Part shown: positions 1,533 through 63,169 of the stretch, in pieces
Layout: every line of letters begins with the position of its first letter
Numbering within the stretch: position 1 is the stretch's first letter
Source of the DNA: Catajapyx aquilonaris
Taxonomy: Eukaryota
Direction of reading: 5' to 3'
DNA: 64,000 nucleotides
Assembly (NCBI GenBank): GCA_000934665.2
Contig: JYFJ02001380.1
Coordinates: 1-64,000 of the forward strand
Notes under the pieces: generated by a model
Told to the model about the DNA's origin: nothing
The model's input: only the letters and a program-made list of their open reading frames with translations
Databases searched by the model: none
Position numbers and translations under genes: made by a program

Positions 1533-12059
<10,527 letters not shown>

Positions 12060-30600: not shown

Positions 30601-30688
30601 AGAAATGATAGGCGTGTCACACTCGCACCGATTAGATCCACAGCGAACAGCAAAGAATCCCGAAACAAACCTAGTATTTACATTGTGA
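27678..30688 (+). pseudogene. IR copy 5, interrupted by a 1.07-kb foldback element and a +2 (TA) frameshift at ~30385
   Basis: The conserved ESLQRGVMRYID is split at 29232/30307 and the C-terminus resumes in ORF 30392..30688. Confidence 0.9.
29233..30306. mobile_element. Non-autonomous foldback-type DNA transposon with ~340-bp inverted arms made of ~150-bp subunits; 3-bp TSD AAC
   Basis: AAC|TAGTCCGGGCCCTAAGCG ... CGCTTAGGGCCCGGACTA|AAC. Paralogues show the empty site gaatctctgcaacgaggtgtg. No transposase ORF. Confidence 0.92.
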
Positions 30689-31074
30689 TGGCTTATGATA
30701 ATTAAAATGGAAAATGGATATTTGCATCGGGAATGTACAGACATACGTTCGTTTTGATGTTTACATAAATGTACTATCGAATGCCATGATTTATGTAATT
30801 ATATCATACATCACTCCTGTGGGAATGGGTCAATAAAATGTTTCTCAACATGCACCCATGCTATGCATTTCATTATTCATCCACTGACAGACACTAAGTC
30901 TTGAGAAATCAAGGATATGTGGGGAAATCATCTATCTAATATTCTTCACGAGTCGTGATGTAATGATGACTGCATGTGCGCAAGACTGTCACGAACCAAG
31001 TGGGCAGTCCACACCTTGAGCTAACTCATATTGGGATGTACTTTGTGGAACTCGCAGTCTATCCAGCCATAAAT

Positions 31075-33000: not shown

Positions 33001-33703
33001 TGTTATGTTCACATATTTTTTAGCGCTTGAGTTTTCCGAAACAGTCACACCTATTTTCTCAGGTGTCACACTATTTATTCAGCCAGTCAATAAGATGTTT
33101 ACCTACATGCACCCGGGCTAGGTGTTTCACTATTCTGATTGTCAACAGACTCTATCGCCTAGTAAACAAGGGAAATGGCGAAATGACGAGTCGCAATGTC
33201 GTAATGACAATGCGCTTAATAATGTCACAATACCGGATGCTCGGTCCGCAGCTTCACCAGAACTTAACCTGACTCACTTAGAACCACTTGCGGTTCGTAA
33301 ATATTATTATTGAAAATTTTAAGATTAAATCATCAATTATTTCTAAAATGTTATTGTGATCAGCAATCTGTTTGGCAACAAGCGTGAGGGCTATGAGATT
33401 TCATCTGGCAAGGGAGTCAATTATTATTGAAGAAATGAATTAAATGTTTAGCGACATGCCACCTTGCTAGGTGTTTTATTATTCGGATGTTGACAGACAC
33501 TAACGCCTAAGAAATTCACGGGATATGGCGTAATCCAAAGATTCTTGACGAGTCGTGATATAATAATGACAGTACGTGGCGCAAAACTATCACGGGCCAA
33601 CGGTGTACAGTCCACACCTTGGGCAGAGTAAAACCATACTCATTTAATAACATTTCCTGATCATAAACATTGTCTGGCTTTCAGTCAGTGAAGCTAAAAA
33701 ATA

Positions 33704-35620
33704 ATGCTATGTCAAGATGGGCTCATTTCTGATTTACTTTTGTGGACAGTCATTGCCGAAGTGACAGTGACTACGAAATCCCAAGTGGAGATTGAACAAA
33801 CTCTTTTGGCACAAGTAGTGTACAGGATGAGCCAGGAGAACACTCGACTGGTCAACTGCACCTTGTCCATCCTGCACGATGGACGAGTACTGGACAATGG
33901 TCTGGAGAAACCAATCACTAGTGTGGACGTCCCAGTGGTGGTTGCTTCACTGGAGGAGAATCCGAAGAGTGTGGACGAAAGTGAATTGGTGATCCAGCAA
34001 TCGGGGCAGTGCTTCTTGATTCTTGTTCACTCCAAATACGAATATTTTCGTGCTTTACTTGAACTATTATTTTATTCACTGAGAAAGCGAAAAATAACTC
34101 GCGATTATATCGTTTCCCACATTAGTGACGGGTATCTTCATGAAGCATTAGAATGGGAATCTCCTCAATACAAGCACAGAGTGGGTGTGGACAATTTGAA
34201 GATGGAAAATGGCAATCTGACATTTCGGTTGCTGTCAGCGTGCTACTTCTGCCAGGAAGGAAACTATTCCGTCAAAGAATCGCATGATGTCACTTCATTT
34301 GAAAACTTGTTTATTGATGCAACAATGGACTTTCGTGGAAGAGCCATTCACTTGTTTGGGGAAGACTATTGGTTGAACCGCTATTTGGAGAAATACTTGC
34401 ATTATGTAAAGGGAGACAACCGTGCGGCATATCAGGACGACCCGTACGCCCACAGCCAAGGTGCAGTAATACTGGTTGGCCTTCACACTTACACACATCC
34501 TTACAAAAGGCAATGCATGATGATGGTTACGAAGAAAATCACAGCAACCATGACTTGGGCTGTGCTTCTCTTTCCCTTCAGTTGGCAGGTGACACTGCCT
34601 TTCATAACATTGATACTGGTAATCACCACAATGCTTTGCCATCTCTTGAAGCCAGGTCAAAGCACTTTTGCATATCACTTCAATTATGTCATCATCCTTG
34701 CCCTGAAGGTGTACCCACCCCTTTTATGTCAATCCATCGAAATGAAAGACTTGAGACCTGCTGCGACCTGGATATTCTGCATGTACTCCTTCTTCTGCGT
34801 CCTGATGTCCAACTTCTTCACTGCAGACATGGTCGGACTGTTAATGAAACGGCCTGCAAAAAATGTTGACACTCTGACTGATCTTGTGGACATGGGCTAC
34901 AAGTGGGGTGCAGAGAAGAGCGATGCTTTTTACTTCGATCAATTTGTCAATGTCACTGAAATTGAAGTGGAAAAAGTAATCGCCAATGGGATCGACTACT
35001 ACGAAAAGGAAGATTATGACGACTTCTTTGAAGAATGCCTTGGGACAGCAATGGTGGAGAAGTTTGCTTGCTTTGTGTATGGAGGATATCTGGACTATTA
35101 TCTGCTATATAGAAATATTCATCGATCTAAAATCAGATCCCCTGATCAACTTCATATGGTCCGAAGTTCACTGCCGCTTTGGATGGGCGGAATATCTCCC
35201 CGAATAGATTACTCGGTCACATTCGAATCTCTTCAACGAGGTGTGATGAGATACATTGACTTCGGATTCCGTCATTGCGACTACGATCTCACGTACAAGC
35301 GGTTCATAGAAGTCCAGAAGATGTCTTTATTCAAGGAGGATAATACTGCGTATGTTGAGAATTCTCCCATAGCCCTCCGTCTGCCTCACTTGAAGTCACC
35401 ATTTCACGCCCTCTGTTTCGGATTGTGTCTGTCATTGTCTTGTTTTCTCTGCGAAACTACAAATCTGCTTTCTTTCCTTCCAATTGTCGCTAAACGACAC
35501 GGCCATGCTAAACGGCAGGTGCGCAACAAAGTAACAGTCATCGTACCGAAAGATCCGAATAGAGCCAATTTTCACACTGTGCGAGTCAATCCGGACACAA
35601 ACCTGGTTTTCACACTGTGA
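33704..35620 (+). CDS. Divergent IR (copy 7), intact, 638 aa, mosaic
   Basis: Full architecture, ending NPDTNLVFTL. Confidence 0.87.
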   Translation: MLCQDGLISDLLLWTVIAEVTVTTKSQVEIEQTLLAQVVYRMSQENTRLVNCTLSILHDGRVLDNGLEKPITSVDVPVVVASLEENPKSVDESELVIQQSGQCFLILVHSKYEYFRALLELLFYSLRKRKITRDYIVSHISDGYLHEALEWESPQYKHRVGVDNLKMENGNLTFRLLSACYFCQEGNYSVKESHDVTSFENLFIDATMDFRGRAIHLFGEDYWLNRYLEKYLHYVKGDNRAAYQDDPYAHSQGAVILVGLHTYTHPYKRQCMMMVTKKITATMTWAVLLFPFSWQVTLPFITLILVITTMLCHLLKPGQSTFAYHFNYVIILALKVYPPLLCQSIEMKDLRPAATWIFCMYSFFCVLMSNFFTADMVGLLMKRPAKNVDTLTDLVDMGYKWGAEKSDAFYFDQFVNVTEIEVEKVIANGIDYYEKEDYDDFFEECLGTAMVEKFACFVYGGYLDYYLLYRNIHRSKIRSPDQLHMVRSSLPLWMGGISPRIDYSVTFESLQRGVMRYIDFGFRHCDYDLTYKRFIEVQKMSLFKEDNTAYVENSPIALRLPHLKSPFHALCFGLCLSLSCFLCETTNLLSFLPIVAKRHGHAKRQVRNKVTVIVPKDPNRANFHTVRVNPDTNLVFTL

Positions 35621-36419
35621 GGTTTAACTAATTGCAGCTTCGTCTATATTGATTCATAATAATTATACCGTATTGTTAGTTTCATCTGACAATAACATAA
35701 AGGCATAGCGATAAAATACCGTAGTCAGTTTTGCGATCAGATATTTTGCCTAATTATTACCCAATTGTTTAAGAATGAGCTCAATTCACTCATGTGAATT
35801 TGATGGAACCCTTGGTATTCATCAAGTGCTGCTCTGACAGGTACAATGAGGTAAGGCTCAATATCGTTATGTAACTCTCTGGCACCATGCATATGAGTCT
35901 GAGCTTTTAATATAACCAGCATTATTTTAAGCCAATGTCAGTTATTAATAAGGACTATTAAAGTAGGATTTTTCATTTCTTATCCCAAACGCATGTGAGC
36001 TTTCATATCAGTATCGTGTCTTATTCAAAGACGTTATCGGCAAGGTTATCGGCCTCATTTACCGTTGCTCAATGAGATAAAGTCTACTGGAATCGCGCTC
36101 ACGTGATTTACAAATTTGTTTAAAACAAGTTTTGAAATCAATTGTACTTTTTTTCTTTGAACATGGCACGTTATTTTGGGGAATCACGCATTATAAGAAT
36201 CTCCCCAAATATAATGTGATGATATACATTGACTCCAGATTCCTTCAATAAGACACGTAAGACTGTGTACGTATATACGTCATAATCCTACTTCCAGGTA
36301 GGAAATTATTCTGCTGTCGTGATATTATATGTCTAGTTGTAATTACAGTATAATTATGTGTAGTATTAGATTTGTTTAAATGTTCAGGTTAATGAAGGTT
36401 TGAATGGGATGAGTTGATA

Positions 36420-37001
36420 GCTGCATTGAGAGAATAATGGTGGATAAGTGTGCTTGTTTCGTACCAGAATACGCTTGGAGCCTGGTGGGCATGATGCTAG
36501 ATAATAAGTTACGCTTTGATGTTAATCTGGATGAGATTCACGCGGGACAAAGCGAACTACAACTCACCATGATGGGAATAGTCACTAATGTAAGGTATAC
36601 TCGGTTATTTACGAATCTCTGCGACGAGGTGTGATGAGATTCATTGAATTCGGATTCCTCCATTTCTACATCCAAGTACTCGAATACGAGTATAATAATG
36701 CTGGTGATGATTCCCTACATAGAAGAAAAAACAATATCCGATAGAAATGATTTAAAAGGACTCGAACTGCTCCACTTGAAGTCACCATTTCTCGCCCTGT
36801 GCGTCATTTGCATGCTTCCTATATGTGAAACCACAAATGCAGCGGGTCTTCGTGCAATTCTTTCTAAACAGTGCACACCTGTTAATCGTCATGTTATCGA
36901 CAAATCACCACGAAAGCCAGGCGTATCACTGTCGTACCTACTTGATGTAATACATCGAGCAGCAAAAAATCCCCAAACAAACCTATAGTATTTACATTGT
37001 G
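36420..37001 (+). pseudogene. IR 3' fragment (S2 to tail), duplicate of the 3' end of copy 57066
   Basis: AWSLVGMMLDN.LRFDVNLDEIHA is shared with 58410-58520. The downstream flank 37000-37440 matches 58990-59430. Confidence 0.85.
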
Positions 37002-38426
37002 ATGTTTAATTGAAGAAATGGAAAATAACTGTCGAATATAATCGTTCCCCGCGCAACTGTATTCAACGGGAATACGACCAATACAAGGCTATGTTGTTGA
37101 CAATCGTATCATATCCCATTATGTTACTCGTTAATGTAATCAATGCTGCTTTAATAAACACTCGATACATAATAATTATGGCAGGGTTTTATTCGATTGT
37201 AGATCTCATTGCAGATCAGTCAATCACCATGATGTTGGGGCATAGAATTTTAATATTGCATACCCAACCTAGACGTGTTCATGCGCTGTTGACAGGTCCG
37301 TTACTCTGCAAACCCACATTCACACTACAGCCATCCTTATCGCGTGATCTGACGACTATAGTGCAGAAAAGTTCAATACAATTATGTCACTGACTTACTA
37401 GTACTTCCGGTGGTATAAGTTACCTTTTTAAAAAATAATGCAACAAAGTACGACGCGTCTCTCGCAGCTTGACGCGTGCTGGGTGTACAGAGTGATTGTA
37501 TGATAGCCCAATGATTTCAGCAATAATATTTTAAAGATCAGTCCTCTTTAGCTTCTGGTACGAGTGACAATGATAAATGATCGATCCAAGGTGGACAGAG
37601 AGAGATTATTATAAATTATGTTCACATGATCATATTTTAGAATATATTGCGACTTTAACTCCACTTTCTGATGGTCGTAGCATTTTCCTTGAGAAAATGT
37701 AGCCTGGGCTCTCAATTTGACACGCTTTAATTAAGGTAGTGGGAGTATCTATCAATCATGCGTAGATATTGAAGTGGACTTTTTATTAATTATCCCAAAA
37801 GCCCTTGACATAATTATAAACTACAGGAAATCATTACAGAGGCCTGCACATTTATTCCATGTTCATGAGTTTTTAAATATCATGAATAACCAGTCTGTTA
37901 TAACCGAAAACAAGTCTACGTGTTTAACTAGGCCGTTATTTACAGATTCTATCGCCAATAATAAACAAGAGAAAAGAGAAATGACGAGTCGCGATTAGGT
38001 TATGACATAATGTGCTCAATAATGTCACAGGCCGATCGTTCTACTAGTTGAGATATCCTTCATAAATTTTAGGATTCAATCACCAATTTCTAAAATGTTA
38101 TTGTAATCGATATTCTGTTTGGCAACAAGCGTGAGGGCTATGAGATTATATTTGGCAGGGGTCTCAATATTATTGATGAAGTGAATTAAATGTTTAGCGA
38201 CATGTCACCTTGCCAGGTGTTTTATTCTTCTATTGTTGATAGACACTAACGCCTAAGATATTCACTCGATATGACGTCATTCTTGACGAGTCGTGATATA
38301 ATAATGACAGTATGGGAGCAAAACTATCACGTGCCAACGGTGGCTGAGTAAAACCAGACTCATTTAATAACATTTCCTGTTCATAAACATTGTCTGGCTG
38401 GCTTTCAGTCAGTGAAGCTAATAATA

Positions 38427-40358
38427 ATGCTATGTCAAGCTGTGCTCATTTCTCACATACTTTTGAGGACATCAGTTTTTGCAGAAGTGACAGTGACTTC
38501 GAAATCCCAAGTTGACATTGAACAAACTCTTTTGGCAAAAGTAGTGTCCAGGATGAGCCAGGAGAACACTCGACAGGCCAACTGCACCTTGGCCATCCTG
38601 CACGATGGACGAGTACTGGACAATGGTCTGGATCAACTGCCCACTCTGGTGAACACTTCTGTTGTGGTTGCTTCACTGGAGAAGAATCCGAAGAATGTGA
38701 ACGAAAGTGAATTGGTGATCCAGCAATCGGGGCAGTGCTTCTTGATTCTTGTTCACTCCAAACGTAACTTGCTTGCTGGTCAGCTAGTCCGCCAATTTGC
38801 TAATGGCCTGGGAAAATCACCCGTGACTTGATAGTCTACCACGTACGTGACATATATACTTTTGAAGCTTTGAACTGGGAATCTGAAAAATACAAATACA
38901 GAGTGGGTCTGGATAATTTGAGGGTAGAAAATGGGAACCTGAAATTTAGGTTACTGTCAGCGTGCTACTTCTGCCAAAAAGGAAAATACTCGGTCGAAGA
39001 ATTGTCTACAGAGGCGCCATTTGAAGACTTATACAAAGACAACACAGTGGATTTTGGCGGGATGGCAATTCACGTGGGGACTCCAGATTATCTTTTAAAC
39101 CTCTACATGGCGACGTACCTGCATTACGTACCGTTCACGTTACTAATATACGAGACCCGTGAGACGTTCCTCTACACTCATAACATGAAACCGATATATT
39201 AACATTAGATAACTCACAGACTTTCACCCACCCTTATCGAATAGACAGGATGTTAATTGTCACTAAAAACATTCTCCAACCATCATGACTTGGGCGGTTC
39301 TTCTATGTCCCTTCACCTGGCAGGTGACACTTCCTTTCGTGACTGTGATATTGGTACTCACCATACTGTTTTGCCATCTCTTAAAACCAGATCAAAGCAC
39401 TTCCAAGTATCACTTCCGTTTTGTCACCATCCTTGCCCTGAAGGTGTTCGCACCCCTTTTGTGCCAGTCCATCGAAATGAAAGACTTGAAACCTGCTGCG
39501 ACCTGGATCTTCTGCATGTGTTTCTTCTTCTGTGTCCTGATGTGCAACTTCTTCACTGCAGACATGATCGGACTATTTATGGACAAAACAGTTAAAAACG
39601 TGGATTCTCTGGAGGATCTTGTGGACATGGGCTACAAGTGGGGAGCAATTAAACAACACATGTCCTATTTTGATTCCTTGGCGAACGTGACCGAGATTGA
39701 ATTGGAAAAAGTGATCGTCAATGGGATGGAATACATCGATATGGAGGACTATTATTATCACGTCTCCATGTTAAAAGAATGCGTAAGGAGATTAATGGTG
39801 GAGAAATTTGCTTGCTTCGTACCAGAACACATGTGGAGCGTGGTGAGCCTGGTACAGTATCATTCTTCGAATGAATATCGTATTGATCAGATTCACGCGG
39901 TACAAAGCGAACTACCACTCGTGATGATTGGAATAGTCACTAAGGTACAGTACTCGGTAATTTACGAATCTCTGCAACGAGGTGTGATGAGATACATTGA
40001 CTGCGGAATATTTCATTACTACACATACGTCATAATCCAACTTTTCAAATATTTATATTTGCTGAAAGAACGAAAAACGATTTCATCCGATGGAAATAAT
40101 TTAAAAGGACTCGAAATGCTCCATTTGAAGTCGCCATTTCTCGCCCTGTGTGTTGGATTATCAGTGTCTTTGGCATGCTTCCTTTGCGAAGCTACAAGAG
40201 TGATTGATCTTCGTGCAAATCGTGCTAAACAATGCAAGCCCGTTAATCGACATTTTATCGACAAATCACCAGAAAAGATATGCATGTCACACTCGCACCG
40301 ATTAGATCCACAGCGAACAGCAAAGAATCCCGAAACAAACCTAGCATTTACATTTTGA
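38427..40358 (+). pseudogene. IR copy, frameshifted (~38810, ~39185)
   Basis: ORFs 38412..38831, 38828..39202 and 39285..40358 tile one paralogue closely related to copy 5. Confidence 0.87.
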
Positions 40359-40389
40359 TGGCTTATAATAATTAAAATGGAAAATGGAT

Positions 40390-40442
40390 GATGATGGAAT
40401 GATCCCCCTGGGGCATATGTCGAGGCCTCCGCCAGGTATTGA
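40390..40442 (-). mobile_element. ~50-bp insertion/indel, possibly the extreme 3' end of a non-LTR retroelement with an (ATC)n tail
   Basis: Absent from the paralogous site at ~30718 (atggaaaatggatatttgcatcggg). GC-rich, with a (gat)n end. Confidence 0.4.
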
Positions 40443-40796
40443 TTTGCATCGGGAAAGTACAGACACACGTTCGTTTTGATGTTTACATTAATGTACTAGC
40501 AAATGCCATGAGTTATGTAATCATATCATACATCACTCCTGTGGCAATGGGTCAATAAAATGTTTCTCAACCTGCACCCATGCTATGCATTTCATTATTC
40601 ATCCACTGACAGACACTAAGTCCTGAGAAATCAAGGATATGCGGGGAAATCATATATCTAATATTCTTGACGAGTCGTGATGTAATGATGATTGCATGTG
40701 CGCAAGACTGTCACGAACCAAGTGGGCAGTCCACACCTTGAGTTGACTCATATTGGCATACACTTTGTGGCACTCGCAGTCTATCCAGCCATTAAT

Positions 40797-42662: not shown

Positions 42663-43418
42663 ATACAACATGCAGTGTGGTCCAATAAATCCTGACACAA
42701 ACTTGATATTCGCACTGTGATGTTCACATATTTTTAGCGCTTGTGTTTTCAGAAACAGTCAGACCTATTTTCTCAGGTGTCACAATATTTATTCAGCCAG
42801 TCAATAAGATGTTTACCAACATGCACCCTGGCTAGGTGTTTCACTATTCTGATTGTCAACAAATTCTATCGCCTAGTAAACAAGGGAAATGGCGAATGAC
42901 GAGTCGCAATGTCGTAATGACAATGTGCTCAATAATGTCACAATACCGGATGATCGGTCCGCAGCTTCACCAGAACTAAACCTAACTCACTTAGAACCAC
43001 TTGCTGTTCGTAAATATTATTATTAAAAATCTTAAGATTAAATCATCAATTATTTCTAAAATGTTATTGTAATCAGCAATCTGTTTGGCAAAAAGCGTGA
43101 GAGCTATGAGATTTCATTTGGCAAGGGACTAAATTATTATTGAAGAAATGAATTAAATGTTTAGCGACATGCCACGTTGCTAGGTGTTTTATTATTCTGT
43201 TGTTGATAGACACTAACGCATAAGAAATTCACGAGATATGGCGTAATCCTAAGATTCTTGACGAGTCGTGATATAATAATGACAGTACGTGGCGCAAAAC
43301 TATCACGGGCCAACGGTGTAGTACAGTCCACACCTTGAGCAGAGTAAAACCAGACTCATTTAATAACATTTCCAGTTCATAAACATTGTCTGGCTTTCAG
43401 TCAGTTAAGCTAAAAATA

Positions 43419-45347
43419 ATGCTATGTCAAGCTGTGTTAATTTCTCACATACTTTTGAGGACAGTTTTTTCTGAAGTGACAGTGACTACGAAATCCCAAG
43501 TTGAGATTGAACAAACGCTTTTGGCACAAGTAGTGTCCAGGATGAGCCAGGAGAACACTCGACTGGTCAACTGCACCTTGGCCATCCTGCACGATGGACG
43601 AGTACTGGACAATGGTCTGGAGAAACTCATCACTGGTGTGGACGTCCCAGTGGTGGTTGCTTCACTGGAGGAGAATCCGAAGAGTGTGAACGAGAGGAAA
43701 TTGGTGATCCAGCAATCGGGGCAGTGCTTCTTGATTCTAGTCCACTCCAAACATAACTTGCTTGATCAGCTAGTCCGCCAATTTGCTAATGGTCTGAGAC
43801 ATGGGAAAATCACCCGTGATTTGATTGTCTACCGCGTACGTGACAGATATACTTTTGAAGCTTTGAACTGGGAATCTGAAAAATACAAATACAGAGTGGG
43901 TCTGGATAATTTGAGGGTAGAAAATGGGAACCTGAAATTTCGGTTACTGTCAGCGTGCTACTTCTGCCAAAAAGGAAAATACTCGGTCGAAGAATTGTCT
44001 GCAGAGGCGCCATATGAAGACTTATACAAAGACAACATAGTGGATTTTGGCGGGAGGGCAATTCACGTGGAGACTCCAGATTTCTTTTTAAACCCCTACT
44101 TGCAACAATACCTGCATTATGTAATTATATATAATTATGTGATGTACGAAACCCGTGAGCTGTACCTCTACACTCACGAACATGAAATCGATATATTAAC
44201 ATTAGACAACTCACAGACATTCACCCACCCTTATCGAATGGACAAGATGTTAATTCTCACTAAAAAACATTTTCCAACCATGACTTGGGCAGTGCTTCTC
44301 TGTCCATTCACCTGGCAGGTGACACTTCCTTTCGTGACTATGATATTGGTAATCACAGCAGTGTTTTGCCATCTCTTAAAACCTCGCCAAAACACTTCCA
44401 AGTATCACTTCAGTTTTGTCACCACCCTTGCCCTGAAGGTGTACCCACCCCTTTTCTGCCAATCCATCAAAATCAGAGACATGAGACCTGCTGCGACCTG
44501 GCTATTCTGCATGTATTTCTTCTTCTGTGTCCTGATGTGCAACTTCTTCACTTCCGATATGATCGGACTATTCATGGAAAAAGAAGTGAAAAACGCGGAT
44601 TCTCTGGAGGATCTTGTGGACATGGGCTTCAAGTGGGGAACAATTAAACAGTACAGGTCTTATTTTGATTCCTTTGCGAACGTTACAGAGATTGAATTGG
44701 AAAAAGTGATCGTCAATGGGATGGAATACTCATACGATATGGCGGACTATGGAGACTTCTTGTTAGAATGCTTTAGGAGAGTAATGGTGGAGAAGTTTGC
44801 TTGCTTCGTACCAGAAAGAGTCTGGAACTTGATGTGCTTGATACAGTGTCATCATTCTGCGGATGAATATAATATTGACCAGATTCACGCAGTACAAAGC
44901 GAACTACCACTCATGATGATGGGAATAGTCACTAAGGCAAAGTACTCGGTTATATACGAATCTCTGCAGCGAGGTGTGATGCAATACATTGACTGCGGAT
45001 TCCTTCATTACTACACGTACGTCATCATCCAACAATTGAAAAATTTATATCAGATGATGTCATTCAAGGAGCGAAAAATGTCATCCGATGGAAATAATTT
45101 AAAAGGACTCGAACTTCTCCAATTGAAATCACCATTTCTCGCCCTGTGTGTTGGATTATCTGTGTCTCTGGCATGCTTCCTTTGCGAAGCGAAAAACGTG
45201 ATGGATCTTCGTGCAATTCGTGCTAAACAATGCACGCCTGTTAATCGACATTTTATCGATAAATTACCAGAAAAGATAGGCGTGTCACACTCGTACCGAT
45301 CCGATGTACAGCGAACAGCAAAGAATCCCGAAACAAACCTACAGTAG
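43419..45347 (+). CDS. Divergent IR, 642 aa; last residues lost to a 5-bp insertion
   Basis: Full architecture, related to copy 4, ending NPETNLQ*. Confidence 0.85.
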   Translation: MLCQAVLISHILLRTVFSEVTVTTKSQVEIEQTLLAQVVSRMSQENTRLVNCTLAILHDGRVLDNGLEKLITGVDVPVVVASLEENPKSVNERKLVIQQSGQCFLILVHSKHNLLDQLVRQFANGLRHGKITRDLIVYRVRDRYTFEALNWESEKYKYRVGLDNLRVENGNLKFRLLSACYFCQKGKYSVEELSAEAPYEDLYKDNIVDFGGRAIHVETPDFFLNPYLQQYLHYVIIYNYVMYETRELYLYTHEHEIDILTLDNSQTFTHPYRMDKMLILTKKHFPTMTWAVLLCPFTWQVTLPFVTMILVITAVFCHLLKPRQNTSKYHFSFVTTLALKVYPPLFCQSIKIRDMRPAATWLFCMYFFFCVLMCNFFTSDMIGLFMEKEVKNADSLEDLVDMGFKWGTIKQYRSYFDSFANVTEIELEKVIVNGMEYSYDMADYGDFLLECFRRVMVEKFACFVPERVWNLMCLIQCHHSADEYNIDQIHAVQSELPLMMMGIVTKAKYSVIYESLQRGVMQYIDCGFLHYYTYVIIQQLKNLYQMMSFKERKMSSDGNNLKGLELLQLKSPFLALCVGLSVSLACFLCEAKNVMDLRAIRAKQCTPVNRHFIDKLPEKIGVSHSYRSDVQRTAKNPETNLQ

Positions 45348-50586: not shown

Positions 50587-51977
50587 ATGATTCATAAAGT
50601 TTTGCTTTCCACACTCCTATTTTGTTGGACAGCTTGTGCAAAAGTGACAGTGACTACAGAATCCGACGATGAAAGTGAAGAGACACTTTTGGCAAAGGTA
50701 GTGTCCAGTATGAGCCAGGAGAACACTCGACTGGTCAACTGCACCTTGGCCATCCTGCACGATGGACGAGTACTGGACAATGGTCTGGAGAAACTAATCA
50801 CTAGTGTGGACGTCCCAGTGGTGGTTGCTTCACTGGAGGAGAATCCGAAGAGTGTGGACGAGAGGGAATTGGTGATCCAGCAATCGGGGCAGTGCTTCTT
50901 CATTCTTGTTCAATCCAAATACGAACATTTTCGTGCGTTACTTGAACAATTTGATGACTCAATGAGAAAACGGAAAATAACCGGCGACTATATTATTTTC
51001 CACATTAGTGACGGGTATCTTCATGAAGCATTAGAATGGGAGTCTCCCCAATACAAGTACAGAGTGGGTGTGGACAATCTGAAGATGGAACATGGCAATA
51101 TAATATTTCAGTTACTCTCACTGTGCTACTTCTGCCAAAAAGGAAAATACTCGGTCGAAGAATCGCATAATGTCACTTCACTTGAATACTTGTTCACTGA
51201 CACGACAGTGGACTTTCGAGGGAGAGCCATTCACGTAAATCATGAAGATGATATTTTGAACCTCTATATGGAGAAATACCTGCATTATGTAAGTAAAGAA
51301 AACGTTTCTGCAATTATCATGAAGACCTGTACGCTCACCGGACAAGTGTAGCAATACAGGTTGGCCGTAACACTTACACCCACCCTTACATAATGGAAAG
51401 CATGATGATGGTGACCAAGAAAATCACACCAACTATGACTTGGGCTGTGCTTCTCTTTCCCTTCTCCTGGCAGGTGACGCTGCCTTTCGTGATTGTGATA
51501 TTGGTAATCACGACAGTGTTTTGCCATCTCTTGAAACGAGGCCAATGCACTTCCAAGTATCACTTCAATTTTGTCACCCTCCTTGTCCTCAAAGTGTACC
51601 CACCCCTTTTATGCCAGTCCATCAATATCAGAGACTTGAAACCTGCTGCGACCAGGATCTTCTGCATGTATTCCTTCTTCTGTGTCCTGATGTCCAACTT
51701 CTTCACTGCAGACATGATCGGACTGTTAATGAAACGCCCTGCAAAAAATGTTGACACTCTGACTGATCTTGTGGACATGGGCTACAAGTGGGGTGGAGAG
51801 AAGAGCGACACATTTTACTTCGATCAATTTGTCAATGTCACTGAAATTGAAGTGGAAAAAGTGATCGCCAATGGGATCGAGTACTACGAAAAGGAAGATT
51901 ATGACGACTTCATGGAAGAATGCCTTGGGCGAGCACTGGTGGAGAAGTTTGCTTGCTTTGTGTATGGAGATTATCTG

Positions 51978-52054
<77 letters not shown>

Positions 52055-54765: not shown

Positions 54766-56604
54766 ATGTTTTGGAAATGGGGATTCATTGTGCACTTACT
54801 TTTGTGGACTGTTTTTGCCGAAGTGACAGTGACTACAAAATCTGAGGATGAAAGTGAAGAGACACTCTTGGTAAAAGTAGTGTCCAGGATGAGCCAGGAG
54901 AACACTCGACTGGTCAACTGCACCTTGGCCATCCTGCACGATGGACGAGTACTGGACAATGGTCTGGAGAAACTAATCACTAGTGTGGACGTCCCAGTGG
55001 TGGTTGCTTCACTGGAGGAGAATCCGAAGAGTGTGGACGAGAGGGAATTGGTGATCCAGCAATCGGGGCAGTGCTTCTTGATTCTTGTTCACTCCAAATA
55101 CGAATATTTTCGTGCTTTACTTGAACAATTATTTTATTCACTGAGAAAACGGAAAATAACTCGCGACTATATCGTTTCCTACATATGTGACGGGTATCTT
55201 CATGATGCATTAGAATGGGAATCACCTCAATACAAGTACAGAGTGGGTGTGGACAATTTGAAGATGGAAAATGGCAATCTGACATTTCGGTTGCTGTCAG
55301 CGTGCTACTTCTGCCAGGAAGGAAACTATTCCGTGAAAGAATCACAAAATACTTCATTTGAATACTTGTTCACTGACACAACAATGGACTTTCGTGGAAG
55401 AGCCATTCACTTGTTTGGTGAAGACTATTGGTTGAACCGCTATTTGGAGAAATACCTGCATTATGTAAAGGGAGACAACCGTGCGGCATATCAGGACGAC
55501 CCGTACGCCCACAGCCAAGGTGCAGTAATACTGGTTGGCCTTCACACTTACACACATCCTTACAAAAGGCAATGCATGATGATGGTTACGAAGAAAATCA
55601 CAGCAACCATGACTTGGGCTGTGCTTCTCTTTCCCTTCTCCTGGCAGGTGACGCTGCCTTTCGTGATTGTGATATTGGTAATCACCACAATGCTTTGCCA
55701 TCTCTTGAAGCCAGGTCAAAGTACTTTTGCGTATCACTTCAATTATGTCACCGTCCTTGCCCTGAAGGTGTACCCACCCCTTTTGTGTCAGTCCATCAAA
55801 ATGAGAGACTTGAGACCTGCTGCGACCTGGATCTTCTGCATGTATTCCTTCTTCTGCGTCCTGATGTCCAACTTCTTCACTGCAGACATGGTCGGACTGT
55901 TAATGAAACGCCCAGTTAAAAATGTGGATTCTCTTCAGGATCTTGTGGACATGGGCTACAAGTGGGGTGCAGCGCAGAGTGGCTCATTTTACTTCAATGC
56001 TTTCGTCAATGTCACTGAGATTGAAGTGGAAAAAGTGATCGCCAATGGGATCGAGTACTACGGCAGCGAATATTATATGGACTTTATTGAAGAATGCATT
56101 GGAAGAGCAATGGTGGAGAAGTTTGCTTGCTTTGTATTTGAAGGATATATGGACTTTTATATTGCGTTTGGAAACATTCATCGATCTAATAGGAGATTAT
56201 TTCACTCTGATCAGCTTCATCCGGTACAAAGTTCACTACCGCTTAAGATGGGCGGATTATCTCCCCGAATAAAGTATTCGGTCACATTAGAATCTCTTCA
56301 ACGAGGTGTAATGAGATACATTGACTTCGGAATCCTTCAATACGACATGGATCTCAGGTTCAAGTGGAGCATAGAAGTCATGCAGATGGCTTCGTTCAAG
56401 GAGAAAAATGCTACAGCCGATGCGAATTCTCCAACAGCCCTCGGCCTGCCTCACTTGCAGTCTCCATTTCACGCCCTGTGTTTTGGATTGTGTGTATCAT
56501 TGGCTTGTTTTCTGTGTGAAAAAACAAATCTGCTGGGTTTTTATTCAATTGTGGTGAAACGACACGACCAACAAAACAACTATAATCGTACATGTAATAA
56601 ATAA
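54760..56604 (+). CDS. Divergent IR, full-length to M4, short tail, 614 aa
   Basis: Full architecture. Start is 54760 or 54766. Confidence 0.85.
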   Translation: MNMFWKWGFIVHLLLWTVFAEVTVTTKSEDESEETLLVKVVSRMSQENTRLVNCTLAILHDGRVLDNGLEKLITSVDVPVVVASLEENPKSVDERELVIQQSGQCFLILVHSKYEYFRALLEQLFYSLRKRKITRDYIVSYICDGYLHDALEWESPQYKYRVGVDNLKMENGNLTFRLLSACYFCQEGNYSVKESQNTSFEYLFTDTTMDFRGRAIHLFGEDYWLNRYLEKYLHYVKGDNRAAYQDDPYAHSQGAVILVGLHTYTHPYKRQCMMMVTKKITATMTWAVLLFPFSWQVTLPFVIVILVITTMLCHLLKPGQSTFAYHFNYVTVLALKVYPPLLCQSIKMRDLRPAATWIFCMYSFFCVLMSNFFTADMVGLLMKRPVKNVDSLQDLVDMGYKWGAAQSGSFYFNAFVNVTEIEVEKVIANGIEYYGSEYYMDFIEECIGRAMVEKFACFVFEGYMDFYIAFGNIHRSNRRLFHSDQLHPVQSSLPLKMGGLSPRIKYSVTLESLQRGVMRYIDFGILQYDMDLRFKWSIEVMQMASFKEKNATADANSPTALGLPHLQSPFHALCFGLCVSLACFLCEKTNLLGFYSIVVKRHDQQNNYNRTCNK

Positions 56605-57065: not shown

Positions 57066-58877
57066 ATGATTCATAGAGTTTTACTTTGCACACTCCTATT
57101 TTGTTGGGGAGCTTGTGCTCTGGTGACAGTGACTACAAAATCTGAGGATGAAAGCGAAGAGACACTCTTGGCACAAGTAGTGTCCAGGATGAGGCAGGAG
57201 AACACTCGACTGGTCAGCTGCACCTTGGCCATCCTGCACGATGGACGAGTACTGGACAATGGTCTGGAGAAACTAATCACTAGTGTGGACGTCCCAGTGG
57301 TGGTTGCTTCACTGGAGGAGAATCCGAAGAGTGTGGACGAGAGGGAATTGGTGATCCAGCAATCGGGGCAGTGCTTCTTCATTCTTGTTCACTCCAAATA
57401 CGAATATTTTTGTGCATTACTTGAACAATTTAATGACTCACTGAGAAAACGGAAAATAACTCGCGACTATATTATTTTCCACACTAGTGACGGGTATCTT
57501 CATGAAGCATTAGAATGGGAGTCTCCAAAATACAAGTACAGAGTAGGTGTGGACAATATGAGGATGGATAATGGTAACCTAACATTTCGGATGCTGTCAG
57601 CGTGCTACTTTTGTGAGGATGGAAAATACTCTGTTGAAGAACTGTCAACAGAGAAGCCATTTGAATATTTGTATATTGACAACACAGTGAACTTTGGCGG
57701 GAGGGCTGTTCACGTGGAGTCTCCAGATTATTTTTTAAACCCCCACTTGGAAGAATACCTGCATTACGTAACTGCCATGAATGAGACCGGTGAGACTGAC
57801 CTCTACACTCACTATCATGAAATAGAAGCATCAGTATTAAAATCACAGACTTTCACCCAGCCTTATCGAATAGAGAGGATGTTAATTATCACTAAAAAAC
57901 CATTTCCAACCATGACTTGGGCTGTGCTTCTCTTTCCCTTCTCCTGGCAGGTGACACTGCCTTTCATCACCGTGATATTGGTAATCACCGCAGTGTTTTG
58001 CCATCTCTCGATACCAAGTCAACGCAATTCTACGAATAACTTCAATTTTGTCGCCATCCTTGCCCTGAAGGTGTACCCACCCCTTTTGTGCCAGTCCATC
58101 GAAATGAAAGATATGAAACCTGCTGCGACCTGGATATTCTGCATGTATTCCTTCTTCTGTGTCCTGATGTCCAACTTCTTCACTGCAGACATGGTCGGAC
58201 TGCTCATGAAAAAGTCTGTTAAAAATGTGGATTCTCTGCAGGATCTTGTTGACATGGGCTACAAGTGGGGGACCAGCAGAGAGCACATGCTTTATTTTGA
58301 TTCCTTTGTGGAAGTGACGGAGATTGAATTGGAAAAGGTGATCGTCAATGGGATCGTATACTCCTATGAGGACTATGCATCGTTTCTAGAAGAATGCATT
58401 GATAGAGTAATGGTGGATAAGTTTGCTTGCTTCGTACCAGAACTTGCATGGAGCCTGGTGGGCATGATGCTCGATAATAATTTACGCTTTGATGTTAATC
58501 TGGATGAGATTCATGCGGTACAAAGCGAATTACCACTCATGATGGTAGGAATAGTCACTAAGGTCAGGTCCTCGGTAATTTACGAATCTCTGCAACGAGG
58601 TGTGATGCGATACATTGAATGCGGATTCTTCAATTTCTACATTCAACGACTCAAATACGAGTATATGCTGGCAAGTATGCTGGTGATGATTCAGTACAAA
58701 GAAGAAAACACAATTATATCCGATGGAAATAATTTAGAAGGACTCAAACTACTCCACTTGAAGTCACCATTTCTTGCCCTGTGTGTTGGATTATCTGTGT
58801 CATTTGCATGCTTCCTATATGAAACCACAAATTCAGTAGGCCTTCGTGCAATTCTTTGCAAACCTGTAATTAATTAA
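57066..58877 (+). CDS. Divergent IR, full-length to M4, tail truncated, 603 aa
   Basis: Full architecture. NPQTNLVFTL is still encoded downstream of the stop (~58958-58989). The upstream region matches that of copy 50587. Confidence 0.85.
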   Translation: MIHRVLLCTLLFCWGACALVTVTTKSEDESEETLLAQVVSRMRQENTRLVSCTLAILHDGRVLDNGLEKLITSVDVPVVVASLEENPKSVDERELVIQQSGQCFFILVHSKYEYFCALLEQFNDSLRKRKITRDYIIFHTSDGYLHEALEWESPKYKYRVGVDNMRMDNGNLTFRMLSACYFCEDGKYSVEELSTEKPFEYLYIDNTVNFGGRAVHVESPDYFLNPHLEEYLHYVTAMNETGETDLYTHYHEIEASVLKSQTFTQPYRIERMLIITKKPFPTMTWAVLLFPFSWQVTLPFITVILVITAVFCHLSIPSQRNSTNNFNFVAILALKVYPPLLCQSIEMKDMKPAATWIFCMYSFFCVLMSNFFTADMVGLLMKKSVKNVDSLQDLVDMGYKWGTSREHMLYFDSFVEVTEIELEKVIVNGIVYSYEDYASFLEECIDRVMVDKFACFVPELAWSLVGMMLDNNLRFDVNLDEIHAVQSELPLMMVGIVTKVRSSVIYESLQRGVMRYIECGFFNFYIQRLKYEYMLASMLVMIQYKEENTIISDGNNLEGLKLLHLKSPFLALCVGLSVSFACFLYETTNSVGLRAILCKPVIN

Positions 58878-59922: not shown

Positions 59923-61846
59923 ATGTTCTGGAAATGTGCATTCCTTGCGCACTTACTTTTGTGGACTGTTTTTGCCGAAGTGACAGTGACTACAAAATGT
60001 AAGGATGAAAGTGAAGAGACACTCCTGGCACAAGTTGTGTCCAGGATGAGCCATGAGAACACTCGACTGGTCAACTGCACCTTGGCCATCCTGCACGATG
60101 GACGAGTACTGGACAATGGTCTGGAGAAACTAATCACTAGTGTGGACGTCCCAGTGGTGGTTGCTTCACTGGAGGAGAATCCGAAGAGTGTGGACGAGAG
60201 GGAATTGGTGATCCAGCAATCGGGGCAGTGCTTCTTGATTCTTGTTCATTGTAAAATAATACGAATATTTTCGTGATTTACTTGAACAATTATATTATTA
60301 AGTGAGAAAGTGGAAAATAACTCGTGATTATATCATTTTCCACATTAGTGACGGGTATCTTTATGAAACTTTAGGATGGGAATCTCCACAATACAAGTAC
60401 CGGGTGGGTGTGGACAATTTGAAGATGGTGAATGGCGATGTAACATTTCGATTGCTGTCAGCATGCTACTTCTGCCAGGAAGGAAAATACTCCGTCAAAG
60501 AATCACATAATGTCACTACATTTGAAGACTTGTTCACTGACACAACAATGGATTTTCGAGGGAGAGCCATGCACTTGTTTGATGTAGACTATTGGTTGAA
60601 CCGCTATTTAGAGAAATACCTGCATTACGTATGGGAATACGACGATGCTGCATATGAGGAGGACCTGTACGCTCACCGCGTAAGTGCAGCAATACTGGTT
60701 GGCCGTGACACTTACACCCACCCTCATGTAATGGAAACCATGATGATGGTGACCAAAAAAATCACACCAACCATGACTTGGACTGTGCTTCTCTTTCCCT
60801 TCAGTTGGCAGGTGACACTCTCTTTCATCGCAGTGATATTGGTAACCACCGCAGTGTTTTGCCATCTCTTGAAACCGGGCCAAAGCACTTCCACATACCA
60901 CTTCAATTTTGTCACCATACTTGCCTTTAAGGTATGCCCACCCCTTTTGTGCCAGTCCATCGAAATGAAAGACTTGAAACCTGCTGCGACCTGGATATTC
61001 TGCATGTATTCCTTCTTCTGTGTCCTGATGTCCAACTTCTTCACTTCAGACATGATAGGACTGTTAATGAAACGCCCTGCAAAAAATGTTGACACTCTGA
61101 CTGATCTTGTGGACATGGGCTACAAGTGGGGTGGAGAGAAGAGCGACGCATTTTACTTCGATCAATTTGTCAATGTCACTGAGATTGAAGTGGAAAAAGT
61201 AATCGCCAATGGGATCGAGTACATCAAAAGGGAAGCGGATTCCTACTCCATTGAAGAATGCCTTAGGAGAGCAATGGAGGAGAAGTTTGCTTGCTTTGTA
61301 AATGGAGGAGAGCTGGACTTTCATCTTCTATATGGAATCATTCTACGATCTCAAGGAAGATTGCTCCCTGATCAGCTTCATATGGTCCGAACTTCACTTC
61401 CCCTTAGGATGAGCGGAATATCTCCCCGAGTAAAGTACTCTGTCACATTAGAATCTCTGCAACGAGGTGTGATGAGATACATTGACTACGGAATTAGTCA
61501 TTACGACTACGATCTCAGGGACAAGCGGAACAAAGAACTCATGCATATGTATTATTTCAAAGAGTATAATGCTGCGTCTGTTGAGAATGATCCAATAGCC
61601 CTCGCCCTGAGTCACTTGCAGTCTCCATTTCACGCCCTGTGTTTTGGATTGTGCTTGTCATTGGCTTGTTTTCTCTGCGAAACTACAAATCTGCTGGGTT
61701 TCCTTTCAATTATCGCTAAACGACACGGCCATGCAACACGGCAGGTACGCAACAAAATAATAGTCCCCGTACCGAAAGACCCGAATAGAGTCAACTTGCA
61801 CTCTGAGCTAATCAATCCGGACACAAACCTGGTTTTCACACTGTGA
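59923..61846 (+). pseudogene. IR copy with a +4 frameshift (~60255) and an adjacent premature TAA (60299-60301)
   Basis: ORFs 59923..60276 and 60302..61846. The remainder is intact and ends NPDTNLVFTL. Confidence 0.87.
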
Positions 61847-63169
61847 GGTTTAATTATTGCTGCTTCGTCTATAATTATTCATAATTATACCGTATTGCTA
61901 GTTTCATCGGACAATAACATAAAGGCATAACGATTAAATACCATAGTTGGTTTAGCGATCATACATTTTGCCTAATTATTCCCCAATTGTTTAAAAATGC
62001 ACTCAATTCACACATGTGAATCTGCTGTCATATTTATTAGTGAAACATTTGGTATTCACTTAGTTGCGTACTAAATTCGTGGGTTTATGCGTGTATCATG
62101 TCGCATGGATATCGAGAAAACGTGCTGCTCTGACAGGTACAATGAGGTAATGCTCAATATGCGGGTTATGTACTTTAATAGGCAAGACGCCATATATGAC
62201 TGCATGTGCGCAATACTGTCACGAATAGATTCGGCAGTCCACACCTTGAACTTGCCTTGAACTATCTCATCAGATTGGGATACACTTTGTGGCACTCTCA
62301 GACTATCCCGTAAGGAAATCTGGGAGACGTCCTTCTATGACAATAAGTACAGTGATGTATGGCTCAATAATGTTATGTCACTCACGAGTCCCTATGGACT
62401 TAATAATAATTATATTCACCTTCTAGTTAAGTAATGTGACAAGTAGGACACCTCTCTTGAGGCCAAAGTTGTTTGATAATAATGATTTCGACTATATTTT
62501 AAGGTTCACTGTCAGCTTTTTCCTTTAACGAAAAGCACGAGTGATAGTAGTGAATGTCGTCAATCCAAGGTTGACAGGAAGAGCAGAATGAATAATGCCA
62601 GCCTTTGTCGTTTTTAGTGTTACACGCATTTGTTACAGTCTCCGGGTCATAATTTCAAAAATCTCCCACTTTTACACCATTTTATGAAGTCTCGTTAGTT
62701 CATAGCTTATAGTAGACCTTCTGACACCAAATAAATAAATAGTAATCGTCTATCCACCTTGGGTCATGTATGTACAATTTTAGTCGGCATGAAATAATGT
62801 CACTCACCTTTCACACGCAGATCTTCAATAATTCAGTACAATTTCAATCATTAAAAACGACTGTGCGCAAAAGCTCAGTAATATATGGTTCATTGAGGAA
62901 ATGGAAAATAACTGGTGACTATAGGAGTATATGGCTGTATCGTTTCCCACACAACTTTATACAAATGGGAATCCGCCCTATACATGAAATGATTTGGTGT
63001 TGACATTTTTTGGTTCCTGTCAGTGTCCTACATTCTTCCGGAAAAGAAATTGGATCTATTGTTTCGAAAACCACATAAGTCCAGAGGAGCGTACCATATT
63101 GATTTTACTCTTTTTTGCCACAAATACAGGGCCATTACAGGTCGGCAGATTGGCACACATTATCGATAC

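Follow-up and report, generated by a model that had tools for sequence, protein, structure and literature searches.

A Probable Mosaic Gene in a Tandem Array of IR-like iGluR Genes of Catajapyx aquilonaris

The window analyzed here, a 64,000-nucleotide stretch of Catajapyx aquilonaris DNA (contig JYFJ02001380.1, positions 1 to 64,000), carries a tandem array of ~16 copies of intronless genes on its + strand. Copy 7 of the array (c07; 33704..35620, + strand) is an open reading frame of 638 codons and a stop that appears to encode a divergent iGluR/IR-like subunit, and its upstream spacer and leader, its middle and its 3' part have their nearest relatives in different neighboring genes. Copy 7 is probably a true evolutionary mosaic, produced by ordinary recombination (unequal crossing-over, gene conversion or both) within an array of intronless, IR-like iGluR genes that is specific to its lineage. 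Homologous exchange between misaligned tandem paralogues would have generated the mosaic by joining to the 5' module a body from the other deep class of the family (the middle shared with c13, S2 and the tail shared with c12 and c15), and a later, short conversion would have left its S1 nearly identical to that of c13.

Segments, partners and junctions of copy 7

Coordinates were checked by global pairwise alignment, and the nearest copy was followed along copy 7 by sliding 100-bp identity. From 32948 to 33800 the nearest copy is c10 (the 43419 copy), at 75% in the first window (32948) and at 84-98% thereafter; from 33800 to 33950 all the copies are alike, most of them at 93-99%; from 33950 to 34800 the nearest is c13 (the 54760 copy), mostly at 88-100%; and from 34800 on the nearest are c12 (the 50602 copy) and c15 (the 59938 copy), at 92-97% as far as 35150 and at 74-90% from there to ~35800.

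A sequence-only reading of this DNA had already proposed these three affiliations, and pairwise alignment upholds them. The intergenic spacer upstream of copy 7, a putative promoter module (33001..33703, + strand), is colinear with the spacer upstream of c10, and spacer and leader together (33001-33820) are 94.1% identical to those of c10 (42721..43535, + strand; 48 mismatches and 11 gap columns). The middle segment (33913..34832, + strand), which comprises the rest of the N-domain, S1, M1, the pore and M3, switches after block 1 to c13, with 95.3% identity to 54975..55891 (+ strand), a partner identified by sliding identity, pairwise alignment and a tract test. Nested in this segment, over S1, is a younger, near-identical tract shared with c13 (34320..34579, + strand) in which 2 differences, at 34360 and 34397, stand against an expected 12.8 (binomial p 5e-5); the count of two differences first reported for 34322-34577 vs 55381-55636 is exact (254 of 256 positions identical). 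The third segment, S2, M4 and the tail (34855..35620, + strand), follows a second switch after the pore/M3 block and is 92.4% identical to c12 over 34855-35150 and 86.2% identical to c15 over 34855-35620. Sliding identity and pairwise alignment place its partners at 51740..52003 (+ strand) in c12, a disrupted copy, for S2a and at 61075..62027 (+ strand) in c15, a frameshifted copy, for S2, tail and 3' flank. The resemblance of the 3' flanks of copy 7 and c15 extends to ~35805/62027 (35621..35805, + strand, 185 bp, 88.4% identical to 61847-62027) and not, as had been thought, to 62170: over the longer span identity is 62%, with gaps. Copy 7 segments differ from their nearest copies by ~5-8%, and similarly so for the c13-like middle and the c12/c15-like S2 and tail.

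Informative sites confine both switches narrowly. Junction 1, c10-like to c13-like, lies at 33812..33913 (+ strand; sites divide 286:17 on its left and 15:215 on its right, Fisher 3e-107). Junction 2 lies at 34832..34855 (+ strand), where the pore/M3 block reaches its 3' limit and M3 gives way to the M3-S2 linker; c13:c12 sites number 108:10 to its left and 32:128 to its right (Fisher 2e-35). Separate segment trees (14 rows, c16 left out) conflict accordingly: c07 groups with c10 upstream (support 91/85), with c13 in N/S1 (100/100) and with c12 in S2 (97/96). AU tests, for which the clades were chosen after inspection of the sliding-window identities, reject c07+c13 upstream (4e-4), c07+c10 (2e-51) and c07+c12 (4e-19) in N/S1, and c07+c13 (1.7e-4) and c07+c10 (2.6e-4) in S2; in the tail the c07+c13 alternative is not rejected (p 0.07). 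As far as sequence relationship goes, S1 and S2 of copy 7 have different nearest relatives, and the earlier proposal that modules (spacer and leader, N-domain/S1, S2/tail) had been re-paired among paralogues is sustained by the incongruent trees together with the AU tests. Which partner was donor and which recipient is beyond what a three-segment pattern can show.

Convergent evolution was considered as a cause of the pattern and rejected: the mosaic extends into non-coding DNA, over ~700 bp of spacer before the gene and 185 bp of flank behind it, which excludes convergence, and synonymous sites carry the same pattern.

On alignment, a segmental duplication of three genes (c05-c06-c07 5' vs c08-c09-c10 5') has the 5' spacer and leader of copy 7 at its right-hand end: 30720-34280 and 40442-43995 are colinear at 91.7%, a further stretch (30307-30719 vs 39976-40389) matches at 94.5%, and the colinearity stops within block 1. 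Downstream of copy 7 lies a truncated 3' gene fragment with its flank (36422..37525, + strand; the tblastn fragment is 36416-36985), which is related to the 57066 copy, namely to its 3' half and the spacer that follows it (85.6% identity to 58395-59505 over 1135 bp).

Copy 7 is not the only mosaic. Copy 8 (c08, 38424; 37865..40352, + strand), a pseudogene, does combine the upstream region of copy 4 with the body of copy 5, as had been read from its sequence: 37865-38430 is 93.9% identical to 24280-24860, with windows in 37874-38170 at 93-99% to c04, and the body is 96.0% identical over ~1 kb to the 27675 copy, with windows mostly at 87-100% to c05 and a short c04-like patch near 39274-39374. 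Copy 14 (c14; 57066..58874, + strand) is also a mosaic, but the description of its S1 as like that of copy 2 was too specific. Its upstream region and N-domain are c12-like to ~57564, and its S1, S2 and tail fall into the c04/c05/c10/c02 class, S1 with an identity of only ~75-86%; the close match to c02, itself a mosaic as well, is a short patch (c07-equivalent 34740-34926, 93-96%). AU tests reject a grouping of c14 with the A class in the N segment (p 7e-4), as well as one of c14 with c12 in 34300-35250 (p 4e-36), a segment that takes in the pore block.

Homogenized blocks, proposed joints and assembly integrity

Block 1 (33810..34020, + strand; 211 bp of the N-terminal domain, codons ~36-105) is homogenized at the DNA level, with a mean pairwise identity of 0.90-0.97, third-position identity of 0.93-0.98 over codons 46-90 (0.81-0.98 across codons 31-105), and edges that are sharp in nearly all copies. 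Its median dS is 0.051, its dN 0.045 and its GC3 0.66. The pore/M3 block (34740..34832, + strand) is partly homogenized (identity 0.90-0.92, dS 0.28, GC3 0.71). Outside both blocks dS is 0.59-1.05, and GC3 in other parts of the gene is 0.36-0.49 (0.55 in M1-preP); M4 provides an internal control, since its protein sequence is conserved (dN/dS 0.18), yet its dS is 0.97. The blocks had been called "invariant", which overstates the case: 149 of 211 columns in block 1 and 62 of 93 in the pore/M3 block are invariant, and departures from the block 1 consensus number 3-9 sites in 13 of the 15 copies, 15 in c04 and 22 in c08. Summed contig depth relative to the flanks is ~10-20x over block 1 and ~10-fold over the pore/M3 block (4 runs, one sample). 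The pattern matches the signature of repeated, regionally restricted, GC-biased gene conversion, which would keep the two blocks alike in nearly all copies.

Might the identity of block 1 instead come mainly from a function of the DNA or RNA, such as a cis-element for receptor gene choice or regulation, with neutral conversion secondary? The idea is modeled on clustered protocadherins, which have conserved elements in their exons and promoters. It is encouraged by the sharp edges of the block, by synonymous sites that are conserved like replacement sites, and by P0001, the only outside relative over block 1, which has 33% protein identity across 139 aligned residues, so that protein constraint alone is inadequate to account for near-identity inside the array. 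However, raised GC3 and a dN close to dS are predicted by conversion alone, Rfam has no match in 32900-36000, and c04, an intact copy, has 15 changes in block 1. A primarily functional origin of the block is, on balance, quite improbable.

Are the blocks preferred places of exchange? The sequence-only reading took them to be germline joints; in the model built on it they are preferred, perhaps selected, sites at which cassettes of promoter, S1 and S2 are re-paired into new receptor specificities. Homologous recombination requires stretches of identity, and copy 7 fits the idea well, with junction 1 inside block 1 and junction 2 where the pore/M3 block ends on its distal side; the patch shared by c02 and c14 begins in the pore block (34720-34774), c13 has a switch at 33982-34018, and the gene-conversion signature in the blocks implies that exchange occurs there. 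The array at large does not single the blocks out. A copying-model HMM (run on c07-equivalent 33760-35600, in place of a noisier low-penalty run with flanks) has 7 of 35 switches (20%) touching widened blocks (the block limits plus ~20 bp), when 19.7% are expected by length; with strict limits and four penalties the counts are 6/60, 4/35, 2/17 and 0/10, when 17-18% are expected (binomial p 0.83-1.0), in tests whose power is limited, with 10-60 non-independent switches. (A technical note: the c05 to c04 switch in c08 near 35236 is an artefact of an insertion that breaks c05; it was left in the counts.) Array-wide mean identity near breakpoints is no higher than at random positions. In an independent pair-switch test on 91 pairs, 2 and 4 of them change between close and far relationship over the blocks; the null means are 2.3 and 2.05, and the observed count is equaled or exceeded in a fraction of 0.73 and 0.17 of the null intervals. 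Many junctions, well-supported ones among them, fall in other parts of the gene: the youngest c07/c13 tract has both of its ends outside the blocks, and several switches cluster at 34204-34297 and not at the blocks.

Blanket positive selection on S1 and S2 was a separate candidate and is not seen; their median dN/dS of 0.33-0.52 gives no general sign of diversifying selection, which also weighs against blocks selected as joints.

"Cassette-like" is likewise a label that the array does not warrant. Its copies are full-length units, each with its own spacer and upstream region; they comprise 9 open frames, 5 disrupted copies and 1 cut by the window end, besides fragments, and silent partial donor cassettes feeding an expression site were not encountered in the array, nor does anything in it point to a programmed process. 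That the blocks are preferred joints is unlikely, and equally doubtful is the broader suggestion that they might be actively maintained, either as landing pads for module exchange or, in the case of block 1, as a cis-element common to the receptor genes and used in their regulation. (If it were true, point mutation would not be the only way in which the array evolves, since the two lobes of the ligand pocket would also be re-paired as modules, and copy 7, with both junctions exactly at blocks, would be the first example to be caught.) If, as the preferred reading of ordinary crossing-over and conversion has it, exchange can start wherever identity suffices, then the blocks may serve as joints without being favored over other sequence, and the re-pairing of spacer, S1 and S2 may be a by-product, with or without a change in ligand tuning or expression.

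A more prosaic explanation would be that the assembly has been threaded through near-identical blocks, that pieces of different copies have been joined, and that copy 7 is not one gene. Block 1 does contain ~100 bp free of sites that tell the partner copies apart; contigs from individual runs break at block edges (one ends at 33782, another starts at 34035); and among the 32 pieces listed (575 more exist) none bridges 33812-33913 or 34832-34855. These contigs come from 4 DNA runs on one sample in one study, in which 55-59% of sampled words are present, and over copy 7 they are short (100-200 bp); the runs listed as containing this stretch include no RNA run. Against an artefact stands the divergence of each copy 7 segment from its nearest copy by 5-8%, which means that an artefact would need another three partial copies without a place in the assembly; in each of the three segments there are contigs identical to sequence specific to copy 7. 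Junction 2 is only 23 bp wide, which is below read length, and the neighboring mosaics c08 and c14 have their junctions in unique sequence. The frame of copy 7 is open, with 4 private residues at otherwise invariant positions (the range among the 9 intact copies is 4-21), and there is no N in 64 kb across ~16 paralogues, which a short-read-only assembly would presumably rarely manage. A misjoined copy 7 is highly improbable.

Assignment to the iGluR/IR family

The array genes are hard to recognize one at a time. No single copy reaches the Pfam cut-off (30.8 bits): copy 7 on its own and c10 have no Pfam match, c01 has E 0.007 and c13 has E 0.0035. With copy 7 as query, a word-index protein search returned nothing at E<=1e-5, and phmmer against the PDB returned nothing. 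A profile built from 9 copies fares better: it retrieves 26 proteins at E<=1e-3, with Pfam Lig_chan (PF00060) in 14 of the 15 scanned proteins among these matches, and it aligns with NR2B (5un1_B) at M1-pore-M3 (E 0.015). The channel core of M1-pore-M3 and M4 (PF00060) is accordingly recognizable in the family at the profile level only. A second profile, A2, which adds 22 distant matches to the 9 copies, aligns over positions ~190-610 with GluD1, kainate and AMPA receptor chains (E 1e-66 to 1e-50). An AF2 model made from A2 has a pLDDT of 65.9, with block means mostly ~60-90 over residues 210-590, and all its listed Foldseek matches are iGluRs (best E 6e-15, TM ~0.3), although much of the signal in the A2 profile and in this model comes from the added distant iGluR-like sequences; a model from 9 paralogues alone has a pLDDT of 28 and is unusable. 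Profile and predicted fold together back the S1-channel-S2 layout of the first reading, and point to a ligand-binding domain in two parts, S1 ahead of M1 and S2 in the stretch from M3 to M4.

Atlas neighbors are arthropod IR-named clusters (scores 0.95-0.98), which provide a lead only; hhalign of the array profile with a neighboring minus-strand Lig_chan gene gives a probability of only 49% (E 1.7e-4, in S2). The best reading of these genes is as a lineage-specific, very divergent iGluR/IR-like channel subunit, whose sequences have diverged too far for assignment to a named IR group. A tRNA scan of the window found none.

Relation to other recombining gene families

Hybrid genes that arise by unequal crossing-over or gene conversion are familiar from L/M opsins, KIR, MHC and plant NLR clusters, and gene conversion has been reported in the TAS2R, OlfC, OR, TLR1 and CEACAM families. 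The array is like these families in having mosaic paralogues whose nearest relatives change from segment to segment at junctions in shared sequence, and in making new combinations of binding and signaling parts; it differs in its gene family. Programmed cassette systems (lamprey VLR assembly, trypanosome VSG, Neisseria pilin, V(D)J) work with donors that are silent and partial and with an expression site, and their switching is somatic or programmed. The array resembles them solely in the notion that short stretches of common sequence join modules: each of its copies is full-length with its own spacer, and the 5-8% differences between partners make the exchanges old germline events, unlike programmed switching.

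The closest likeness is to the protocadherin clusters, in which, as far as is set out in PMC1852091 and in Ohta's review (PMC3966226), both of which also refer to Noonan et al. (2004), the variable exons of fugu, zebrafish and human undergo regional gene conversion; raised GC3 in fugu paralogues is argued in PMC1852091 to be a sign of it. There too, in these accounts, single-exon paralogues stand in tandem, one coding part, surrounded by diverse sequence, is homogenized down to its synonymous sites and has a raised GC3, and the divergent regions tell the paralogues apart. The differences are these: 1) protocadherin homogenization affects 3' ectodomains of a cadherin exon, and that of the array affects two short blocks, of 211 and 93 bp, in the interior of an ion-channel subunit gene; 2) the array genes are independent, without shared constant exons; 3) in the array the flanking modules have visibly been re-paired as well. 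Within the IR family, PMC2924276 (2010) describes species-specific, mostly single-exon genes in tandem arrays, names NAHR as a mechanism of duplication, and depicts birth-and-death evolution with pseudogenes. The array shares with the IR genes of that account the tandem single-exon genes, the NAHR-type duplication and the pseudogenes, and adds mosaics: the paper reports duplication, and neither "chimeric" nor "gene conversion" appears in its text. A literature search, with most subscription journals outside it, found no report of recombinant IR paralogues of this kind.

The mosaicism of the array is an additional example of a known mechanism. Since that mechanism is textbook material, the gain is the new example and a caution for tree-building in the array's family, and not a new principle. 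The example is a clean and statistically solid one, in which S1 and S2 of an iGluR-type clamshell and the upstream spacer come from different paralogues, in an IR-like array that displays the regionally restricted, GC-biased homogenization known from protocadherin clusters. Such natural swaps of S1, S2 and spacer are material for asking which lobe sets the tuning of these receptors, and whether the spacer sets their expression.

The array and the family it represents

The tandem array is made up of + strand, intronless paralogues of ~600-640 codons each (located as stop-to-stop ORFs and by tblastn with copy 7, and numbered by order along the window, in which there are no Ns). Nine have an open frame: c01 (12898-14784), c04 (24861-26738), c06 (31075-32997), c07 (33704-35617; "copy 7"), c09 (40797-42659), c10 (43419-45344), c11 (46821-48731), c13 (54760-56601) and c14 (57066-58874). 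Five are disrupted: c02 (16221-17984), c05 (27675-29282 plus 30306-30685), the pseudogene c08 (38424-40352), c12 (50602-52838) and c15 (59938-61843); c16, which starts at 63520, is truncated by the window end. Gene fragments lie at 15221-15710, 19020-19821 and 36416-36985. Two other genes lie within the array: a + strand MATH-BTB (SPOP-like) ORF (20505-21554), and a divergent minus-strand iGluR-like gene (21791-23696; Pfam Lig_chan, E 5e-9) that only faintly resembles the array family (hhalign 49%) and consists of two overlapping ORFs, implying a frameshift or short intron. Just upstream is a protein-tyrosine phosphatase in two exon-like ORFs (10789-11993; PF00102, E 9e-40 and 2e-7).

The ~1 kb insertion that breaks c05 (29264-30285) carries 330 bp of inverted repeat at each edge (29264-29593 vs 30285-29956, 97.9%) and is probably a transposon of foldback or TIR type; the c05 3' end resumes beyond it. 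c12 has a frameshift near 51300-51350 and a ~330 bp insertion (51980-52330) with a long dinucleotide run that translates as (YI)n in the ORF; the short coding motif DYLEY on both sides of this insertion looks like a target-site duplication. A 676-bp spacer element occurs twice, before c12 (49037-49708) and before c13 (53395-54068), at 94.2% identity, each holding a short gene 5'-end remnant (near 49388-49450 and 53745-53807; tblastn/blastn). A C-terminal motif, NP(D/E)TNLxF(T/A)(L/I/F), is common to c01, c06, c07, c08, c11 and c15 (e.g., 35590-35617) and might be a candidate trafficking or PDZ-type signal; c09, c13 and c14 lack it because their stops come earlier, and the c04 end also differs.

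To what family do these genes belong? Taken alone, c07 had no match in a Pfam scan or with phmmer against PDB, and no relatives at E<=1e-5 in a word-indexed protein search; the Lig_chan matches of c01 and c13 are sub-threshold. A profile of the nine open copies (A1; 58-82% identical to c07) aligns weakly with NR2B at M1-pore-M3 (E 0.015) and retrieved 26 proteins at E<=1e-3 from a library of 1.84 billion. Lig_chan is present in 14 of the 15 scanned matches, nine of which also have Lig_chan-Glu_bd; the fifteenth (P0001) is an N-terminal fragment of 161 residues, whose 139-residue alignment with c07, block 1 included, has 33% identity. Once 22 distant matches are added (A2), the profile aligns over the LBD-TMD with chains of GluD1, kainate and AMPA receptors (E 1e-66 to 1e-50). 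Modelling with AF2 was unsuccessful from the array paralogues alone; A2 yielded a usable model (mean pLDDT 65.9; block means mostly ~60-90 over residues 210-590), for which the Foldseek matches listed are iGluRs throughout (best E 6e-15). Atlas neighbours, a lead only, are arthropod IR-named clusters. By profile and fold evidence, the array genes form an iGluR/IR-like family that is lineage-specific and very divergent, and because that evidence places it with the iGluRs, the proposed layout of two ligand-binding lobes, S1 and S2, flanking a channel is reasonable. A chemosensory role may be presumed.

Copy 7 as a mosaic

The sequence-only reading had described c07 as a three-way chimera, and the mosaic observation is confirmed. 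In 100-bp windows of a MAFFT alignment of 15 loci, the best partner of c07 is c10 up to ~33800, c13 up to ~34800, and c12/c15 up to ~35800 (interrupted near 35150-35250 by a short c06/c09-like patch); 33800-33950 resembles every copy. By informative sites, the first junction falls within 33812-33913 (Fisher 3e-107) and the second within 34832-34855 (Fisher 2e-35). As had been noticed, spacer and leader match c10 (94.1% identity), and all but 2 of the 256 sites in 34322-34577 are shared with c13; the c15-like 3' flank also holds, at 88%, but stops at ~35805, sooner than claimed. Separate segment trees (14 rows, c16 omitted) are incongruent with strong support. AU tests, for which clades were picked after the identity table had been viewed and from which c05 was also omitted in the tail, reject the competing clades (p between 4e-4 and 2e-51), save for c07+c13 in the tail only (p 0.07).

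Since c07 diverges similarly from its three partners (~6%, 5% and 7.6%), the rearrangements that formed it may be of similar age; a recent conversion in S1 would have followed, the c07/c13 tract at 34320-34579 having 2 differences vs 12.8 expected (p 5e-5). The three-segment pattern alone fits c07 as recipient or as donor to c13 and c12. Judged by sequence, c07 looks functional: its frame is open, and at sites where the other eight copies all agree it carries four private changes (4-21 across copies). At 34360 and 35018 the window has G and all contigs covering the site have T (in four runs at 34360 and in three of them at 35018, all from one sample); possible causes are heterozygosity, a consensus error or a paralogue that is nearly identical there, as c13 is at 34360.

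c05-c06-c07(5') is colinear with c08-c09-c10(5') (30307-30719 vs 39976-40389, 94.5%; 30720-34280 vs 40442-43995, 91.7%), and real similarity stops in block 1. On the 3' side, 185 bp of c15-like flank precede ~600 bp that are mostly unmatched (one short match, 76%, 36279-36362); then a truncated gene half, c14-like and from the 3' end, follows together with its flank (36422-37525 vs 58395-59505, 85.6%), and ahead of c08 lies a c04-like upstream region. The truncated half shows this interval to be a product of deletions too, not of exchanges alone. c08 is itself the mosaic it was said to be (upstream 93.9% to c04, body 96.0% to c05); c14 is likewise a mosaic, c12-like to ~57564, but its supposedly c02-like S1 onward can be assigned only at class level (c04/c05/c10/c02, ~75-86%), and c02 behaves similarly.

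Homogenised blocks and the placing of breakpoints

Block 1 (33810-34020, in the N-domain) and the pore/M3 block (34740-34832) are conspicuous in their identity across the array. Third codon positions of block 1 are 0.93-0.98 identical over codons 46-90 (most of the gene, 0.5-0.7), and its median dS is 0.051, with dN 0.045; dS is 0.28 in the pore/M3 block and 0.59-1.05 in the flanks. In M4, where the protein is conserved (dN/dS 0.18), dS is nevertheless 0.97; in these genes, therefore, dS is not brought down by protein constraint. GC3 is 0.66 in block 1 and 0.71 in the pore/M3 block (0.36-0.49 in other parts, 0.55 in M1-preP). Low dS, dN close to dS and raised GC3 are what repeated regional gene conversion leaves behind; for fugu protocadherin paralogues conversion was inferred by the same reasoning (PMC1852091; see also PMC3966226). 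Summed contig depth relative to the flanks is ~10-20x for block 1 and ~10x for the pore block (four runs, one sample). The blocks, claimed to be invariant, are near-invariant instead: 12 copies (pseudogene c08 aside) have 3-9 differences from the block 1 consensus, and the intact c04 (24980-25190), which seems to have escaped homogenisation, has 15, with 5 private residues.

Are the blocks also the recombination joints? For c07 the proposal stands: block 1 contains its first junction, and its second coincides with the distal edge of the pore block. Across the array as a whole, though, there is no enrichment. A copying-model HMM over c07-equivalent 33760-35600 places 35 switches, of which 7 (20%) touch blocks widened to 33810-34035 and 34720-34855, vs 19.7% of the length; under strict limits, runs at four penalties yield 6/60, 4/35, 2/17 and 0/10, vs 17-18% expected (p 0.83-1.0), and identity around HMM switches is the same as at random positions. 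An HMM-free count of copy pairs passing from >=92% to <=85% identity, in either direction, gave 2/91 across block 1 and 4/91 across the pore block; equal-length intervals elsewhere average 2.3 and 2.05, and the fractions equalling or exceeding the observed count are 0.73 and 0.17. The youngest event, the c07/c13 tract, ends outside both blocks. Five of 17 high-penalty switches fall within ~95 bp at the N-domain/S1 border (c07-equivalent 34204-34297, a post hoc observation; e.g., 57565 in c14 and 28150-28210 in c05), in a moderately conserved 'LTFRLLSACYFCQ' region, which may mean that recombinants survived when their joint lay between domains. Given the modest power and the non-independence of HMM switches, there may still be a mild breakpoint preference for the blocks.

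Exchange among paralogues and its alternatives

The interpretation first placed on these mosaics, cassette-like re-pairing of ligand-binding lobes, is partly supported. A programmed cassette system finds no support: the array copies are complete genes throughout, and the exchanged parts are several percent apart. That the assembler joined pieces of different copies into c07 is unlikely, and is kept as a rival because no junction-bridging read or contig is seen among the contigs listed (four runs, one sample). Block 1 might have a function at the DNA level; its conservation is the sole point in favor, and Rfam has no match. The probable mechanism is exchange of the ordinary kind among tandem paralogues, together with GC-biased homogenisation of particular regions.

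It is accepted that IRs expand by NAHR and retroposition (PMC2924276, in whose available text 'gene conversion' and 'chimeric' have 0 occurrences). In a 2024 review on how sensory receptors evolve, gene conversion appears, in the text available, in the reference list only (PMC11526382). S1/S2 re-pairing among IR paralogues was not found in a literature search with most subscription journals outside its scope. Gene conversion is on record, in titles and abstracts, for other receptor families.
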